A stretch of DNA of 5,647 nucleotides from IMG/VR virus record IMGVR_UViG_2540341028_000011, positions 1 to 5,647 of that record; one strand, given 5' to 3'. The translations under genes and the position numbers were made by a program. The notes beneath the pieces were generated by a model. That model did not search any database. It had not been told where the DNA came from and worked only from the letters and a program-made list of their open reading frames with translations. Below, piece by piece: positions 1-5,647 of the stretch. Positions within the stretch are counted from its first letter, which is position 1. The number at the start of each line of letters is the position of its first letter. The DNA comes from a virus (taxonomy: Duplodnaviria > Heunggongvirae > Uroviricota > Caudoviricetes).

Positions 1-2
1 AT

Positions 3-188
3 CTCTGCTCTCATTGCCGTAAAACATGGCAACTACAGTTCACTTACACCGCCTCTCAGCCCGGTACGCACCAGAAAATCATTGATATGGCCATGAATGG
101 CGTCGGATGTCGCGCCAGTGCACGCATTATGGGCGTTGGCCTCAACACGGTTTTACGTCACTTAAAAAACTCAGGCCGCAGTCGGTAA
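3..188 (+). CDS. insA: IS1 InsA (5'-partial, C-terminal 61 codons, stop TAA 186-188)
   Basis: Frame 3 translates to [61 protein letters not shown], which matches the InsA C-terminus. It is not in the ORF track because the start lies upstream of the window. Confidence 0.85.
162..170 (+). promoter_or_regulatory. IS1 programmed -1 ribosomal frameshift site (A6C slippery run)
   Basis: TTAAAAAAC lies just before the insA stop, at the position where IS1 makes the InsAB' fusion. Confidence 0.7.
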
Positions 189-202
189 CCTCGCGCATAT
201 AA

Positions 203-610
203 CCGGGCAGTGATGTGATTGTCTGCGCTGAAATGGACGAACAGTGGGGCTACGTCGGTGCTAAATCACGTCAGCGCTGGCTGTTTTACGCGTATGACAG
301 GATACGGAGGACGGTTGTGGCGCACGTCTTCGGTGAACGCACTCTGGCCACACTGGAGCGTCTTCTGAGCCTGCTGTCGGCCTTTGAGGTCGTGGTATGG
401 ATGACGGATGGCTGGCCGCTGTATGAATCACGCCTGAAGGGAAAGCTGCACGTTATCAGCAAGCGTTACACTCAGCGCATTGAGCGACATAATCTGAATC
501 TGAGACAACATCTGGCAAGGCTGGGACGGAAGTCACTGTCGTTCTCAAAATCGGTGGAGCTGCATGACAAGGTCATCGGGCATTATCTGAACATAAAACA
601 CTATCAGTAA
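203..610 (+). CDS. insB: IS1 insB reading frame (catalytic part of the InsAB' transposase); cut off from insA by a TAA at 200-202
   Basis: Frame 2 [29 protein letters not shown]...[15 protein letters not shown] (track 215..610) matches IS1 InsB. The frame is normally entered by a -1 frameshift at the A6C site, but here it hits TAA 11 codons after that site. Confidence 0.85.
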
Positions 611-611
611 G

Positions 612-1643
612 TTGGAGTCATTACCCGCCGACTGCCTGGAATTTATCTGGTCGTTACCCGAAAATTCTGTTGACCTGATAGTCACGGACCCGCCGTACTT
701 TAAAGTGAAGCCTGAGGGCTGGGATAACCAGTGGAAGGGCGACGATGATTACCTGAAGTGGCTGGAGCAGTGTCTGGCGCAGTTCTGGCGGGTGCTGAAA
801 CCTGCCGGAAGTCTTTACCTGTTCTGTGGTCATCGCCTGGCATCTGATATCGAAATCATGATGCGTGAACGCTTCAGTGTGCTGAACCATATTATCTGAG
901 CGAAGCCGTCCGGACGCTGGAACGGATGCAACAAGGAAAGCCTGCGGGCGTATTTCCCCGCCACAGAGCGCATTCTGTTCGCGGAACATTATCAGGGGCC
1001 GTACCGCCCGAAAGATGATGGCTATGAGGCGAAGGGCAGTGCACTGAAACAGCATGTGATGGCCCCGCTGATTTCTTACTTTCGTGATGCGCGAGCTGCC
1101 CTGGGGATAACGGCAAAACAGATTGCAGATGCCACAGGAAAGAAAAACATGGTGTCGCACTGGTTCAGTGCCAGTCAGTGGCAGTTGCCGAATGAAAGCG
1201 ATTATCTGAAATTACAGGCGCTGTTTGCCCGGGTGGCAGAAGAGAAGCATCGGCGTGGTGAACTGGAAAAGCTCCACCACCAGCTGGTGGATACGTATAC
1301 CTCACTGAACCGGCAGTATGCGGAGCTGCTGAGTGAATATAAACATCTGCGGCGGTATTTTGGCGTGACGGTGCAGGTGCCGTATACCGATGTGTGGACG
1401 CATAAACCGGTGCAGTTCTATCCCGGGAAACATCCGTGCGAAAAACCGGCAGAAATGCTGCAGCAGATAATCAGCGCTAGCAGTCGTCCGGGTGACCTGA
1501 TTGCAGATTTTTTCATGGGGTCGGGTTCGACAGTGAAAGCGGCACTGGCGCTCGGGCGTCGTGCAATTGGCGTTGAGCTGGAGACTGAACGTTTTGAGCA
1601 GACGGTTCGGGAAGTACAGGATTTAGTCAGCCAGAACGGATGA
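612..1643 (+). pseudogene. Phage-type beta-class DNA (probably N6-adenine) methyltransferase, disrupted: 5' end replaced by the IS1 terminus and an in-frame TGA at 897-899
   Basis: Track ORFs 612..899 and 1056..1643 are in the same frame (frame 3), and the only stop between them is TGA 897-899. Motif IV DLIVTDPPY is near the N-terminus and the AdoMet-binding motif DFFMGSGST near the C-terminus, which is the beta-class order. The first five codons (TTG-GAG-TCA-TTA-CCC) are IS1 terminal sequence, so the native start is lost. Confidence 0.8.
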
Positions 1644-1645
1644 TA

Positions 1646-1674
1646 TTGAAGAATTAATTACGCGTCGTTATTAT
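1646..1674 (+). promoter_or_regulatory. Sigma70-type promoter for the tRNA cluster (-35 TTGAAG 1646-1651, 17 bp spacer, -10 TATTAT 1669-1674, GC-rich discriminator GCGGC)
   Basis: The hexamers and spacing put the predicted start about 1681-1683, just before the first tRNA at 1684. A GC-rich discriminator is typical of stable-RNA promoters. Confidence 0.55.
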
Positions 1675-1683
1675 GCGGCTCCC

Positions 1684-1759
1684 GGCCCTTTAGCTCAGTG
1701 GTGAGAGCGAGCGACTCATAATCGCCAGGTCGCTGGTTCAAATCCAGCAAGGGCCACCA
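1684..1759 (+). tRNA. ileZ: tRNA-Ile2-like, anticodon CAU (lysidine type; elongator Met not strictly excluded), 76 nt with encoded CCA
   Basis: Cloverleaf reads directly: acceptor GGCCCTT/AAGGGCC, anticodon loop CTCATAA, T-loop GGTTCAAATCC, 3' ACCA. It closely resembles E. coli ileX from memory, including C4 and C5 in the acceptor stem. Confidence 0.85.
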
Positions 1760-1766
1760 TCACATA

Positions 1767-1843
1767 CCGCCATTAGCTCATCAGGAAAGAGCGCCAGCCT
1801 TCGAAGCTGGCTGCGCGGGGTTCAAGTCCCCGATGGCGGTCCA
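1767..1843 (+). tRNA. argN: tRNA-Arg, anticodon UCG (decodes CGA, rare in E. coli), 77 nt with encoded CCA
   Basis: Acceptor CCGCCAT/ATGGCGG, anticodon stem CCAGC/GCTGG with loop CTTCGAA, T-arm CGGGG-TTCAAGT-CCCCG, then discriminator plus CCA. Confidence 0.85.
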
Positions 1844-1856
1844 TTATCTGCATCAT

Positions 1857-1933
1857 GCGTTGTTAGCTCAGCCGGACAGAGCAATTGCCTTCTAAGCAAT
1901 CGGTCACTGGTTCGAATCCAGTACAACGCGCCA
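1857..1933 (+). tRNA. argO: tRNA-Arg, anticodon UCU (argU-like, decodes AGA/AGG), 77 nt with encoded CCA
   Basis: Acceptor GCGTTGT/ACAACGC, anticodon stem ATTGC/GCAAT with loop CTTCTAA, T-arm ACTGG-TTCGAAT-CCAGT, 3' GCCA. It resembles E. coli argU from memory. Confidence 0.9.
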
Positions 1934-1948
1934 CACTTATTTTCCCTG

Positions 1949-1973
1949 GCTCGCTTTTGCGGGCTTTTTTTTT
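1949..1973 (+). terminator. Rho-independent terminator closing the tRNA cluster
   Basis: Hairpin GCTCGC-TTTT-GCGGGC (6 bp with one G-U pair) followed directly by a run of nine T. Confidence 0.6.
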
Positions 1974-2170
1974 AAATGTCTCACAATTCAGACGGTTGAC
2001 TGTTGTCTGGTTTGCGGGGAGTTTGTTAAAAGAAACTGGCATGGTGAATCCCCCTGTGCGGAGGGGCAATCAGCGAGTAGGTATATGGGATAATCGCGGA
2101 TTCAGGTGCTGGTACTGAATTCACCGGGAGGCACCCGGCACCATGCAATGGCACATAGCGCCACTCTCCA

Positions 2171-2197
2171 GCCCCTCTCCGGAGGGGCTTTCTTGTG
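2171..2197 (+). terminator. Rho-independent terminator-like hairpin (plus strand)
   Basis: Perfect 7 bp stem GCCCCTC/GAGGGGC with tetraloop TCCG, followed by TTTCTTGTG. Confidence 0.55.
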
Positions 2198-2200
2198 GGC

Positions 2201-2229
2201 AAAAAAAGCCCGCGCTGGGAGACGCGGGC
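2201..2229 (-). terminator. Rho-independent terminator on the minus strand, convergent with the one at 2171-2197
   Basis: The plus strand reads A7-GCCCGCG-CTGGGAGA-CGCGGGC, so the minus strand reads a 7 bp GC stem followed by TTTTTTT. Confidence 0.55.
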
Positions 2230-2422
2230 GGCAAGGAATAAACAATAAAACGTGAAGTAATATTTCAGCTGGCGAATAATACCCCATAGTAGTCACTCTG
2301 CGCAACTGCGCGGTCTTTTTCGAATTGCGGGCTGTCGTCTCTCTTCTGCCATTGTCCTGTAACTTCCGGACTTCAGCCCGCTCCTCATTTTACTCACAAT
2401 ATTATCCCGGCCGGGAGGATTC

Positions 2423-3502
2423 ATGGCTTTTAAACACTATGATGTTGTCAGGGCGGCGTCGCCGTCAGATCTTGCGGAAAAGCTGACACATAAACTGAAA
2501 GAGGGCTGGCAGCCGTTTGGTAGTCCGGTGGCCATAACCCCTTATACTCTGATGCAGGCGATTGCAGCAGAAGGTGCAGTAATCAGCGCCACCAGCGACC
2601 CGGAGTATTACTTTGTTGTGGTTCTGGCAGGGCAGTCAAACGGCATGTCGTATGGTGAAGGCCTTCCGCTGCCGGGGACATATGACCGTCCGGACCCGCG
2701 TATTAAGCAACTGGCGCGTCGCAGTACGGTGACACCGGGCGGTGCAGCATGCAAATATAACGACATCATTCTGGCGGACCATTGTCTGCATGATGTGCAG
2801 GACATGAGCCGTCTTAACCATCCGAAAGCGGACCTGTCAAAGGGGCAGTACGGAACCGTGGGGCAGGGGCTGCATATCGCCAAAAAACTGCTGCCGTTTA
2901 TACCGGCGAATGCGGGCATTCTGCTGGTTCCGTGCTGTCGTGGTGGTTCAGCGTTCACCACCGGAGCTGATGGCACATACAGTGACGCGAGTGGTGCCTC
3001 GGAGAATTCAACCCGCTGGGGTGTGGACAAGCCGCTGTATAAGGACCTTATCGGTCGAACAAAAGCGGCACTGGAGAAGAACCCGAAAAATGTGCTGTTT
3101 GCCGTGGTGTGGATGCAGGGGGAATTTGATTTTGGCGGTACGCCGGCAAATCATGCCGCACAGTTTGGTGCGCTGGTTGATAAATTCCGTGCAGACCTGG
3201 CGGATATGGCAGGCCAGTGCGTCGGTGGCTCTGCTGGCGGTGTTCCCTGGATATGCGGGGACACGACGTATTTCTGGAAGCAGAAGAACGAATCCACGTA
3301 CCAGACGGTGTACGGCAGCTATAAAAATAAAACGGAAAAGAATATCCATTTCGTACCGTTCATGACCGATGAGAACGGGGTGAATGTGCCGACGAACAAA
3401 CCGGAAGAAGACCCGGACATTCGGGGTATCGGTTATTACGGTTCGAAATGGCGTGACAGCTCAGCCACCTGGACGTCACAGGACAGGGCGAGCCATTTCT
3501 AG
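2423..3502 (+). CDS. nanS-p: Prophage NanS-p-like sialate 9-O-acetylesterase (N-terminal DUF1737-like segment plus SGNH/SASA esterase domain), 3'-truncated by IS2
   Basis: 359 aa ORF with GGAGG 6 nt upstream of the ATG. The GQSNGMSYGEGLPLP block and the following sequence resemble E. coli NanS/YjhS and the prophage esterase found downstream of stx, from memory. The stop TAG 3500-3502 is the first three bases of the IS2 left end. Confidence 0.8.
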   Translation: MAFKHYDVVRAASPSDLAEKLTHKLKEGWQPFGSPVAITPYTLMQAIAAEGAVISATSDPEYYFVVVLAGQSNGMSYGEGLPLPGTYDRPDPRIKQLARRSTVTPGGAACKYNDIILADHCLHDVQDMSRLNHPKADLSKGQYGTVGQGLHIAKKLLPFIPANAGILLVPCCRGGSAFTTGADGTYSDASGASENSTRWGVDKPLYKDLIGRTKAALEKNPKNVLFAVVWMQGEFDFGGTPANHAAQFGALVDKFRADLADMAGQCVGGSAGGVPWICGDTTYFWKQKNESTYQTVYGSYKNKTEKNIHFVPFMTDENGVNVPTNKPEEDPDIRGIGYYGSKWRDSSATWTSQDRASHF

Positions 3503-3837
3503 ACTGGCCCCCTGAATCTCCAGACAACCAGTATCACTTAAATAAGTGATAGTCTTAATACTAGTTTTTAGACTAGTCATTGGAGTACAGATGATTGATG
3601 TCTTAGGGCCGGAGAAACGCAGACGGCGTACCACACAGGAAAAGATCGCAATTGTTCAGCAGAGCTTTGAACCGGGGATGACGGTCTCCCTCGTTGCCCG
3701 GCAACATGGTGTAGCAGCCAGCCAGTTATTTCTCTGGCGTAAGCAATACCAGGAAGGAAGTCTTACTGCTGTGGCCGCCGGAGAACAGGTTGTTCCTGCC
3801 TCTGAACTTGCTGCCGCCATGAAGCAGATTAAAGAAC
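3500..3837 (+). mobile_element. IS2 left-end fragment (left terminal repeat TAGACTGGCCCCCTGAATCTCCAGACAACC...), interrupted by IS629
   Basis: The terminal sequence and the start of the InsC reading frame match IS2 from memory. The element breaks off at about 3837, where the IS629 terminal repeat begins. Confidence 0.85.
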
Positions 3838-3839
3838 TG
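3591..3839 (+). pseudogene. insC: IS2 orfA (InsC) N-terminal fragment, about 83 codons, truncated by the IS629 insertion
   Basis: [56 protein letters not shown]...MKQIKEL follows a GGAG ribosome-binding site. After KEL the frame runs into the IS629 repeat, giving NRPGNPGD*. The track start at 3546 is probably an upstream over-extension. Confidence 0.85.
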
Positions 3840-3891
3840 AACCGCCCCGGGAATCCTGGAGACTAAACTCCCTGAGAAAGAGGTAAACAGG

Positions 3892-4218
3892 ATGACTAAA
3901 AATACTCGTTTTTCCCCCGAAGTCCGTCAGAGGGCGATTCGTATGGTTCTGGAAAGTCAGGGCGAATATGACTCACAGTGGGCGGCAATTTGTTCCATTG
4001 CCCCAAAGATTGGCTGTATACCGGAGACTCTGCGTGTCTGGGTACGCCAGCATGAGCGGGATACCGGAGGCGGTGATGGCGGGCTCACCACCGCTGAACG
4101 TCAGCGTCTGAAAGAGCTGGAACGTGAAAATCGTGAACTGCGCCGCAGTAACGATATCCTTCGCCAGGCTTCCGCTTATTTTGCGAAGGCGGAGTTCGAC
4201 CGCCTCTGGAAAAAGTGA
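3892..4218 (+). CDS. IS629 OrfA (IS3-family helix-turn-helix / leucine-zipper transposase subunit)
   Basis: 108 aa [33 protein letters not shown]...[36 protein letters not shown] with AAGAGG ribosome-binding site. An A-rich run GGAAAAAG sits at the orfA end, where IS3-family frameshifting occurs. Confidence 0.9.
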
Positions 4219-4826
4219 TGCCACTGCTGGATAAGCTGCGTAAGCTGTACGGGGTCGGACCGGTATGCAGTGAACTACATATTGCCCCGTCAACGTATTA
4301 CCACTGTCAGCAACAGCGACATCATCCTGATAAACGCAGTGCCCGTGCGCAGCGCGATGACTGGCTGAAGAAAGAGATACTGCGCGTATACGATGGGAAT
4401 CATCAGGTATACGGTGTGCGTAAAGTCTGGCGTCAGTTGTTACGGGAAGGTATCAGAGTGGCCAGATGCACTGTGGCACGTCTCATGGCGGTTATGGGAC
4501 TTGCCGGTGTTCTCCGGGGTAAAAAGGTCCGTACGACCATCAGCCGGAAAGCCGTTGCCGCAGGCGACCGCGTAAACCGTCAGTTCGTGGCAGAACGACC
4601 TGACCAGCTGTGGGTGGCTGATTTTACTTACGTCAGCACATGGCAGGGCTTCGTCTATGTGGCGTTCATTATTGATGTGTTTGCCGGATACATCGTGGGG
4701 TGGCGGGTCTCATCGTCCATGGAAACGACATTCGTGCTGGATGCTCTGGAGCAGGCGTTATGGGCCCGTCGACCGTCCGGCACGGTCCATCACAGTGATA
4801 AAGGTTCTCAGTATGTATCGCTGGCC
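4215..4826 (+). pseudogene. IS629 OrfB (DDE transposase catalytic domain), 3'-truncated with the third catalytic residue region missing
   Basis: Frame -1 relative to orfA. Contains WVADFTYV and HHSDKGSQY, the first two acidic-residue motifs of an IS3-family DD(35)E domain. The ORF then reads 4 codons into the next element (VSVN*), so the E-containing region is absent. Confidence 0.85.
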
Positions 4827-4912
4827 GTAAGCGTAAACTGACCGCCGTATGTAGCCATTAAGCCTGTATTGGTAACGTAGGTGCCCACCTTTTCAACTAG
4901 TGGACACCTGTT

Positions 4913-5332
4913 ATGGAACAGAAAGCATTATCTGCAGAACCCCGCAGATCATTTTCAAATGAGTTTAAACTTCAAATGGTTAAACTGGCTTCACAACCAG
5001 GAGCCTCTGTTGCCCGTATTGCCCGGGAACACGATATCAATGATAACCTGCTGTTCAAATGGCTCAGGCTCTGGCAGAACGAAGGGCGCATATCGCGGCG
5101 TCTTCCGGTAACAACCTCTTCTGACACTGGCGTTGAATTATTACCTGTGGAGATAACGCCGGATGAGCCGAAAGAACCTGTGGCTGCTCTTACTTCGTCT
5201 TTATCTACTCAGACTACTGTTAGTGCCAGCTCCTGCAAGGTGGAGTTCCGTCACGGTAACATGACGCTGGAAAATCCTTCACCAGAGCTGCTCACAGTGT
5301 TGATCCGTGAACTGACCGGGAGGGGACGATGA
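4913..5332 (+). CDS. tnpA: IS66-family accessory protein TnpA (helix-turn-helix)
   Basis: 139 aa ORF MEQKALSAEPRRSFSNEFKLQMVKLASQPGASVARIAREHDINDNLLFKWLRLWQNEG..., with the stop overlapping the next start. Confidence 0.8.
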   Translation: MEQKALSAEPRRSFSNEFKLQMVKLASQPGASVARIAREHDINDNLLFKWLRLWQNEGRISRRLPVTTSSDTGVELLPVEITPDEPKEPVAALTSSLSTQTTVSASSCKVEFRHGNMTLENPSPELLTVLIRELTGRGR

Positions 5333-5647
5333 TCTCACTCCCGTCAGGCACCCGCATCTGGCTCGTTGCTGGGATAACCGATATGCGTAAGTCTTTCAAC
5401 GGGCTGGGTGAACAGGTACAGCATGTGCTGAATGATAATCCCTTCTCCGGTCACCTGTTCATCTTCCGTGGCCGACGGGGTGACATGATTAAAATCCTGT
5501 GGGCTGATGCTGATGGTCTGTGCCTGTTCACCAGACGCCTGGAGGAAGGCCAGTTTATCTGGCCTGCTGTGCGTGACGGCAAGGTATCCATTACCCGCTC
5601 GCAACTGGCAATGCTCCTCGATAAGCTGGACTGGCGTCAGCCAAAAA
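5329..5647 (+). CDS. tnpB: IS66-family TnpB (Orf2), 5' part; open to the window edge, so absent from the ORF track
   Basis: Frame 1 from ATG 5329 translates without a stop to MISLPSGTRIWLVAGITDMRKSFNGLGEQVQHVLNDNPFSGHLFIFRGRRGDMIKILWADADGLCLFTRRLEEGQFIWPAVRDGKVSITRSQLAMLLDKLDWRQPK, recognisable as IS66 TnpB. Confidence 0.85.
   Translation, partial: MISLPSGTRIWLVAGITDMRKSFNGLGEQVQHVLNDNPFSGHLFIFRGRRGDMIKILWADADGLCLFTRRLEEGQFIWPAVRDGKVSITRSQLAMLLDKLDWRQPK

Follow-up and report, generated by a model that had tools for sequence, protein, structure and literature searches.

Three insertion sequences behind a prophage nanS-p gene of Shigella flexneri: probable insertions and a deletion, and a doubtful third layer

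Introduction

How did three insertion sequences (IS) come to lie one behind the other in a single phage gene, and do all three belong at that place? The question is raised by a stretch of viral DNA of 5,647 nucleotides (nt; IMG/VR record IMGVR_UViG_2540341028_000011, positions 1 to 5,647), here called the window, in which nanS-p, a prophage gene for a sialate O-acetylesterase, runs into a part of IS2, which is followed by a part of IS629 and then by a part of an IS66-family element. A preliminary description of this DNA had named these three elements, had placed their breakpoints at 3500, about 3837 and about 4826, and had called them co-oriented, all of which has been borne out. Indeed, blastn sets the junctions at 3499/3500, 3837/3838 and 4826/4827, the identities of the segments to IS2 (98.6%), IS629 (99.5-100%) and IS66-family copies (99.1-99.9%) agree with profile matches, and all three elements lie on the + strand. 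The best explanation overall, which we consider probable, is that IS2 entered nanS-p, that IS629 entered IS2 and that a deletion followed, with the third layer remaining doubtful.

The window is the entire draft contig AERO01000124.1 (assembly GCA_000193935.2) of Shigella flexneri CDC 796-83, a strain of serotype 6 whose sequence type is the same as that of CCH060 (PMC6397287, PMC4206707, PMC5429569). A literature search on CDC 796-83 found no sequencing or assembly method, and none of the reports retrieved describes this IS arrangement. Both contig ends lie in repeats, the start within IS1 (625 base pairs (bp) present) and the end 821 bp into the IS66-family element; since the contig stops at 5647, the DNA to the right of it can be read in relatives only. 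The relatives are three long-contig genomes, CP055124.1, JWSL02000004.1 and CP026811.1 (L006 to L008, the last from S. flexneri 64-5500), and the CCH060 draft, in which the locus is on the 56-kilobase (kb) contig AKMW01000034.1 (L009). Reference copies of the IS elements were taken from annotated E. coli genomes and aligned by blastn, profile searches were run against NCBIfam and Rfam, and Pfam hits were taken from the record. The blastn E-values for the three IS segments are effectively zero, so a chance match is of no concern.

The nanS-p/IS2 and IS2/IS629 junctions

The first two junctions are shared by the window and its relatives. Positions 1-4826 of the window are 100% identical to the three long-contig genomes and 99.98% identical to CCH060, and the shared part comprises IS1, a methylase pseudogene, three tRNAs, the 5' part of nanS-p, 338 bp of IS2 and the left end of IS629.

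The 5' part of nanS-p (2423..3502, + strand) consists of 359 native codons (2423-3499) and a TAG supplied by IS2. Its product, which has Pfam DUF1737 and SASA on record and occurs as an identical sequence on 26 contigs, corresponds to residues 1-374 of the intact 636-amino-acid (aa) homologue of S. dysenteriae (P0026) at 87% identity and ends in ...DRASHF. The junction with IS2 at 3499/3500 is seen in 10 fetched loci. The left end of IS2, TAGACTGGCCCCC... (also given as TAGACTGGCCCCCTGAATCTCC... and TAGACTGG...), begins at 3500, and the preliminary description was thus correct in assigning the TAG at 3500-3502 to IS2 terminal sequence; because the IS2 end begins with TAG, nanS-p stops directly at the junction and reads no foreign codon.

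What is left of IS2 is nt 1-338 of 1331 (3500..3837, + strand), namely the left inverted repeat, the promoter region and the first 82 codons of orfA (insC), as recognized by blastn and NCBIfam. In particular, 3500-3838 aligns from the first base to the IS2 of K-12 W3110 (1331 bp, 5-bp target duplication ATTTC) at 98.6% identity, and the T at 3838 can be assigned to IS2 or to IS629, so that either nt 1-338 or nt 1-339 of IS2 are present. The NCBIfam profile 'IS2 repressor TnpA' matches over positions 1-85 of 121 with 187.5 bits, a score that stays under the full-length cutoff of 229 owing to the truncation of the protein. As to a complete IS2 (1331 bp with orfB, right repeat and 5-bp duplication), the rest of it is missing both from the window and from the same locus in the relatives, and the candidate duplication ATTTC (3495-3499) has no partner.

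At 3837/3838, in a junction seen in 7 loci, IS2 nt 338 meets nt 1 of IS629, whose left repeat TGAACCGCCCCGGG... (TGAACCGCC...) begins at 3838. The orfA frame of IS2 continues across it as a chimeric OrfA' of 91 aa (3591..3866, + strand), made of 83 native codons, the last of which is split by the junction, and 8 codons of IS629 before TAA. The reading of about 83 codons followed by IS629 repeat therefore stands, with 8 foreign codons in place of the 9 first counted. The 91-aa protein is found on 4 contigs and is annotated in strains CDC 796-83 and CCH060.

The IS629 segment (nt 1-989; 3838..4826, + strand) is 100% identical to the copy in the three long-contig genomes and includes the left inverted repeat, orfA, the frameshift region and the first 203 codons of orfB. 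Compared with complete 1310-bp IS629-type copies, with which it is colinear and which carry 3-bp duplications (AAC/AAC, CAT/CAT), the segment is 99.5-100% identical, and copies that NCBI calls 'IS1203 family' are 95.8% identical to it. The element belongs to the IS629/IS1203/IS3411 group of the IS3 family, in which it is probably IS629 itself; depositors label an identical C-terminal fragment 'IS629 ORF2 [Shigella flexneri]'. Within the segment, orfA (108 aa; 3892..4218, + strand; NCBIfam IS3-family transposase, positions 1-86) is intact and carries T4019, a base specific to the IS629 copy of this locus that changes OrfA Thr43 to Ile. Also intact is the ALIL pseudoknot, the programmed -1 frameshift signal of IS3-family elements (4173..4289, + strand; Rfam RF01497, 116.2 bits versus a gathering score of 50, model positions 1-117 of 117).

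The orfB frame, on the other hand, is cut. Its product is a chimeric OrfB' of 207 aa (4218..4841, + strand), in which 203 native codons up to ...HSDKGSQYVSLA are followed by VSVN from the IS66 repeat and TGA, in line with the earlier statement that orfB ends after its second catalytic motif with 4 foreign codons. OrfB' matches the NCBIfam IS3-family transposase, for which the IS629 segment scores 211 bits, at positions 93-291 of 369 and has both catalytic D residues, stopping 9 residues past the second (HSDKGSQYVSLA). The E (...NAMAES...), which in complete copies comes 36 residues after the second D and thus beyond nt 989, is missing, and the IS629 of the window does not encode an intact DD(35)E transposase. 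The three open reading frame tails, with 0, 8 and 4 foreign codons, are passive read-through into foreign DNA, an ordinary outcome that calls for no particular cause.

Some observations on IS2 insertion sites are recorded beside these junctions. The ATTTC that precedes IS2 in the window recurs as the duplicated target of an IS2 copy in K-12 W3110 that is unrelated to it (L002 1494-1513), and E. coli KE51 has an IS2 whose 20 preceding bp (L031 3501-3520) resemble the nanS-p flank at 3480-3499 (CAGGACAGG.CG.GCCA). The KE51 site was considered as the same locus and rejected, as it lies in a cnf1-hly island and not in nanS-p; the likeness of the flanks may reflect a target preference of IS2, or chance. 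A human gut metagenome contig (L010; ENA ERZ4567471, 11068-11151) has the same nanS-p/IS2 junction at 97.7% identity to the window, in a prophage that retains early genes and a full-length methylase reading frame. The insertion of IS2 at the nanS-p site is either old or recurrent.

A deletion to the right of IS629 in the relatives

The locus continues differently in the relatives, which part from the window exactly at 4826/4827 and go on with IS629 nt 990. In all four of them IS629 is complete (1310 bp; 11416-12725 in L006), and its right end is directly joined to nanS-p GGGTGAGGG... (GGGTGAGGGTGG), which corresponds to residues 521-636 of P0026, that is, to the last 116 codons. Unlike in the window, a complete IS629 is followed by the 3' end of nanS-p and the lysis genes. 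IS2 nt 339-1331 (993 bp) was not found after IS629 at this locus in any of the four, and between residues 374 and 521 nanS-p lacks about 146 codons, or about 438 bp. The flanks of this IS629 are AAC and GGG, with no 3-bp target duplication, in contrast to a second IS629 (copy B) that lies about 5.8 kb downstream in the relatives with a clean AAC/AAC duplication.

The lack of an IS2 remainder and of a duplication in the relatives indicates a deletion and not a displacement downstream, and rules out simple nesting at the IS2/IS629 level. The preliminary description had allowed for nesting or deletion and had looked for the right part of IS2 (about 1 kb) further downstream in the former case; here IS629 abuts nanS-p codon 521, and that expectation fails. 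Of what it proposed to find on extending the sequence to the right, the 3' part of nanS-p and the complete IS629 are present in the relatives, and the remainder of IS2 and an IS66 element at the site are not.

The history that we consider probable can be put in three steps. IS2 would first have inserted into nanS-p after codon 359, the gene then ending at the IS2 TAG; IS629 would next have inserted into IS2 orfA at nt 338/339; and a deletion starting from the right end of IS629 would finally have taken out IS2 from nt 339 to nt 1331 together with about 146 codons of nanS-p. Such a deletion may have been an adjacent deletion mediated by IS629 or the outcome of recombination with a second IS629 copy, two routes that the sequence does not separate. 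The product would consist of the nanS-p 5' part, 338 bp of IS2, a complete IS629 and the nanS-p 3' end. This structure is seen directly in the relatives, and from it we infer the order of the steps. The locus has no function beyond the inactivation of nanS-p and of the inner transposases.

The prophage of the relatives also contains, about 4.4 kb downstream on the opposite strand, a further IS66 copy (L006 17111-20929), which is split at IS66 nt 1080 by the second complete IS629 with an AAC duplication, a nesting in the reverse order.

The junction between IS629 and the IS66-family element

The element on the right of the third junction is IS66-family (ISEc8-like). Present are nt 1-821 of 2506 (4827..5647, + strand), which open with the left inverted repeat GTAAGCGTAAACTGACCGCC, its GTAAGCG start lying at 4827 as first described, and are ended by the contig end. 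They contain tnpA (4913-5332, + strand; NCBIfam 87.2 bits versus a cutoff of 74) and the first 106 codons of tnpB (5329-5647, + strand; 119.8 bits versus 50); tnpC lies beyond the contig end and in complete copies, where the gene order is tnpA-tnpB-tnpC, scores 448 bits versus a cutoff of 180. Identity over 4827-5647 is 99.9% to the copy on the pINV-type plasmid CP026812.1 of S. flexneri 64-5500 (L017), 99.1-99.6% to the other copies compared and about 92% to IS66-family copies of E. coli plasmids, including one on the O157:H7 EDL933 plasmid. A private base, T5218, is found in 0 of the 16 other IS66 copies compared; it is synonymous in tnpA and lies 429 bp from the contig end. Other copies of the 2506-bp element have 8-bp duplications at many different sites, and the element is active and multicopy. 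The nearby prophage IS66 copy was tried as a donor and rejected, since it differs at 5056 and 5195.

At 4826/4827, IS629 nt 989 (...GTATCGCTGGCC) meets the IS66 left end in the form ...CGCTGGCC followed by GTAAGCGTAAACTG, which is exactly what a transposase would make. Nevertheless, the resulting 207-aa protein (EFW59446.1) is on this contig alone among indexed assemblies, a BLAST search with a 200-bp junction probe found nothing contiguous among 5426 complete E. coli genomes and 72,556 plasmids, and exact junction patterns were in none of the GTDB representative genomes (scanned with a 36-mer and a 23-mer) or JGI metagenomes. Moreover, 4020-4826 is identical in every IS629 copy compared from this lineage, and these 807 bp without a copy-specific marker mean that the IS66 junction is not tied to the nanS-p locus. 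Other assemblies of the locus (L012 to L015) end between 3832 and 4199 or wander into repeats. One of them, the short-read assembly L013 (3432-3561), runs past the IS2/IS629 junction into a full-length IS2 orfA (123 aa), the assembler following the repeat consensus rather than the local copy.

A counterpart of the junction is found on plasmids. In the pINV-type plasmids CP026812.1 and CP160648.1 (L020), as in the window, IS629 ends at nt 989 (...CGCTGGCC), and a terminal repeat of the same IS66 element follows from its first base. In contrast to the window, however, the partner is the IS66 right end (GTAAGCGTCAACGG...), so that IS66 is inverted relative to the window; in the IS629 copy of the plasmid, moreover, T4019 is absent and position 3870 is T. 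The flanks of the plasmid IS66 (L017 5112-8606) are GAACATCA and CGCTGGCC, with no target duplication; on its other side are 167 bp of other sequence and then IS1.

Homologous recombination keeps each flank on the same IS end and thus cannot turn the plasmid junction into that of the window, which accordingly needs a second transposition in the same 8-bp target, a wrong assembly link or an artefact. For the same reason, namely that the pairing of flank and IS end never changes by homologous exchange, recombination between two chromosomal IS629 copies or between IS66 copies was rejected; a deletion between the two IS629 copies was rejected as well, because its product would be a full IS629 running into internal IS66 sequence in reverse. 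E. coli UTME-12 and S7 gave hits in which IS629 and IS66 are nearly contiguous; these were discarded, as IS629 there is inserted into or lies beside an IS66-type element. The third layer may have arisen by private insertion or by a wrong link through a repeat, or it may be an artefact.

Weighing the explanations of the third junction

Some points weigh against an account that ends with the deletion and treats the third layer as doubtful. The deletion is seen in the relatives and not in CDC 796-83, whose contig leaves IS629 at nt 989. In addition, an assembler normally needs reads that contain a junction, and the IS66 part has its private T5218; together these favour a physically real, distinct IS66 copy beside an IS629 cut at nt 989. 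Finally, the contig has the locus-specific T4019, which fits a correct link, though it is 807 bp away from the junction.

It is possible, although in our estimate less likely than not, that the third layer is real at this locus, IS66 having entered IS629 at nt 982-989 in CDC 796-83 alone to give a true three-deep stack. The contig would then be followed by the IS66 right end ...CGGTGCTCCGTTGACGCTTAC, a duplication of CGCTGGCC, then TACACACAGCGG (IS629 nt 990-1310) and the nanS-p 3' end. The exactness of the junction, at which the IS66 left repeat meets the target with its first base, fits this, as do the activity of the element with its many copies and 8-bp duplications, the presence of T4019 and T5218 on one contig, and the fact that private IS insertions are common in Shigella (PMC7373316). 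Against it, IS629 is intact here in the four relatives (99.98-100% over the shared 4826 bp), including CCH060 of the same sequence type, and no marker bridges the distance from T4019 to the junction. Furthermore, the same IS629 nucleotide is the breakpoint of the different IS66 junction on the plasmids, a coincidence that an independent hit would produce by chance in about 1 in 1300 cases. A general hot spot is disfavoured by the lack of such a junction in the complete genomes and plasmids searched, and E. coli genomes holding both IS types show no such insertion, but the common O157-type IS629 has a one-base difference in this 8-mer.

The junction may instead be real in another IS629 copy and have been mis-joined here by the assembler via the shared IS629 sequence, which we likewise consider less likely than not. 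The likeliest site would be the truncated copy of the virulence plasmid, where a second IS66 could have entered beside the resident end, and indeed, on the pINV plasmids of relatives, the same IS629 nucleotide closes a segment of nt 1-989 and abuts an IS66 end. The IS66 part of the window is nearest to plasmid-type or majority copies, with 1 mismatch, compared with 3 differences from the copy of the same prophage, and 4020-4826 cannot tell IS629 copies apart. Other drafts likewise stop in or stray into repeats, L013 following IS2. What speaks against a site elsewhere is that the partner in the two closed plasmids is the right and not the left end of IS66, and that a further transposition is still required, since homologous recombination cannot swap the junctions. 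Other IS families are known to direct insertions at the ends of their own elements; for the IS66 family such targeting would be hypothetical.

It is a little less likely again, in our estimate, that the junction is absent from the cell altogether, having arisen from a chimeric read or from an assembly or finishing error that took the wrong IS66 end at the plasmid's genuine junction. The IS66 ends have GTAAGCGT in common, and over the first 24 bases they agree at 20. An error of this kind would explain the identical breakpoint at no extra cost, and it agrees with a junction seen in one draft contig only whose final 1.8 kb are all repeat. Conversely, both overlap and de Bruijn assemblers need junction reads, a false overlap would need more than 8 identical bases, the bases right after the junction are specific to the IS66 left end, and the private T5218 is unlike a collapsed consensus of many copies. 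The weights given to these three explanations leave a remainder, which is kept for options that we have not thought of.

That the IS66 element has used IS629 nt 982-989 (CGCTGGCC) twice in opposite orientations, once on the plasmid of the lineage and once in CDC 796-83, appears quite improbable. If it were so, it would mean either a site preference or an insertion targeted beside the end of a resident copy; to our knowledge, the IS66 family is not known for either. A real junction, with both IS66 ends reusing one IS629 nucleotide, would provide a small lead on the choice of target in this family.

Weakest by far, and scarcely tenable, is a history in which all three levels are simple nested insertions with their right parts reappearing downstream in reverse order and with duplications, for which nothing speaks beyond shared orientation and clean left junctions, whereas in the four relatives nanS-p codon 521 comes directly after IS629, and neither an IS2 remainder nor a 3-bp duplication is present. 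All in all, two insertions and a deletion, with a doubtful third layer, remain the probable account of the locus.

The prophage to the left of the stack

The window belongs to the late region of a lambdoid prophage, which is decayed, related to Stx phages and devoid of stx. It begins with the right-hand 625 bp of an IS1 (1..625, + strand), which is identical to the IS1 at the same locus in the three long-contig genomes, ends at 625 with the terminal repeat ...GTTGGAGTCATTACC, and can be told from other IS1 copies by T200, a base private to it that lies 199 bp from the contig start, and by position 347. The phage DNA methylase gene that follows (626-1643) carries two inactivating changes: IS1 has taken the place of its first 41 nt at 625/626, and at 897-899 TGG has become TGA, which splits the rest into open reading frames of 95 aa and 194/195 aa, relatives outside the lineage having TGG.

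The trio of tRNAs Met-CAT, Arg-TCG and Arg-TCT occupies 1684-1933. Between it and nanS-p, at 1934-2422, the stxAB cassette, which in the Stx2a phage LC567842.1 used for comparison measures about 1.3 kb, is not present, and the sequences that flank the cassette are both kept. The spacer also contains a full-length match to the Rfam small RNA family STnc100 (2010-2200; 139 bits versus a gathering score of 47), located downstream of the would-be stx position and upstream of nanS-p.

Comparison with known systems

The elements are all known, public closed genomes already contain the first two junctions, and the locus is a case of ordinary IS decay in Shigella. Its biological weight is small, amounting to one more IS-driven step in the decay of a Shigella prophage, by which a phage sialate esterase gene was lost whose relatives are studied in enterohaemorrhagic E. 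coli. It also serves as a warning, as the last 1.8 kb of the contig are pure repeat with one junction seen nowhere else, and the annotated "putative transposase" EFW59446.1 may describe an arrangement that is absent at this locus.

In Shigella reference genomes, 229-348 IS insertions per chromosome have been counted, IS elements inside others have been noted, and ISEc8 is listed for S. dysenteriae Sd197 (PMC7373316). The window resembles that study in its IS within IS; the coverage of the study includes neither S. flexneri serotype 6 nor this locus. Closer to the gene itself, Stx2a phages are described with IS insertions in nanS-p and between stx and nanS-p (PMC10462455). As in the window, the same late-region gene is hit by IS3-family elements (IS629/IS1203), and ISEc8 is present in one phage. 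Unlike in the window, those insertions are single and the phages carry stx, whereas the prophage described here has no stxAB and its nanS-p was first hit by IS2.

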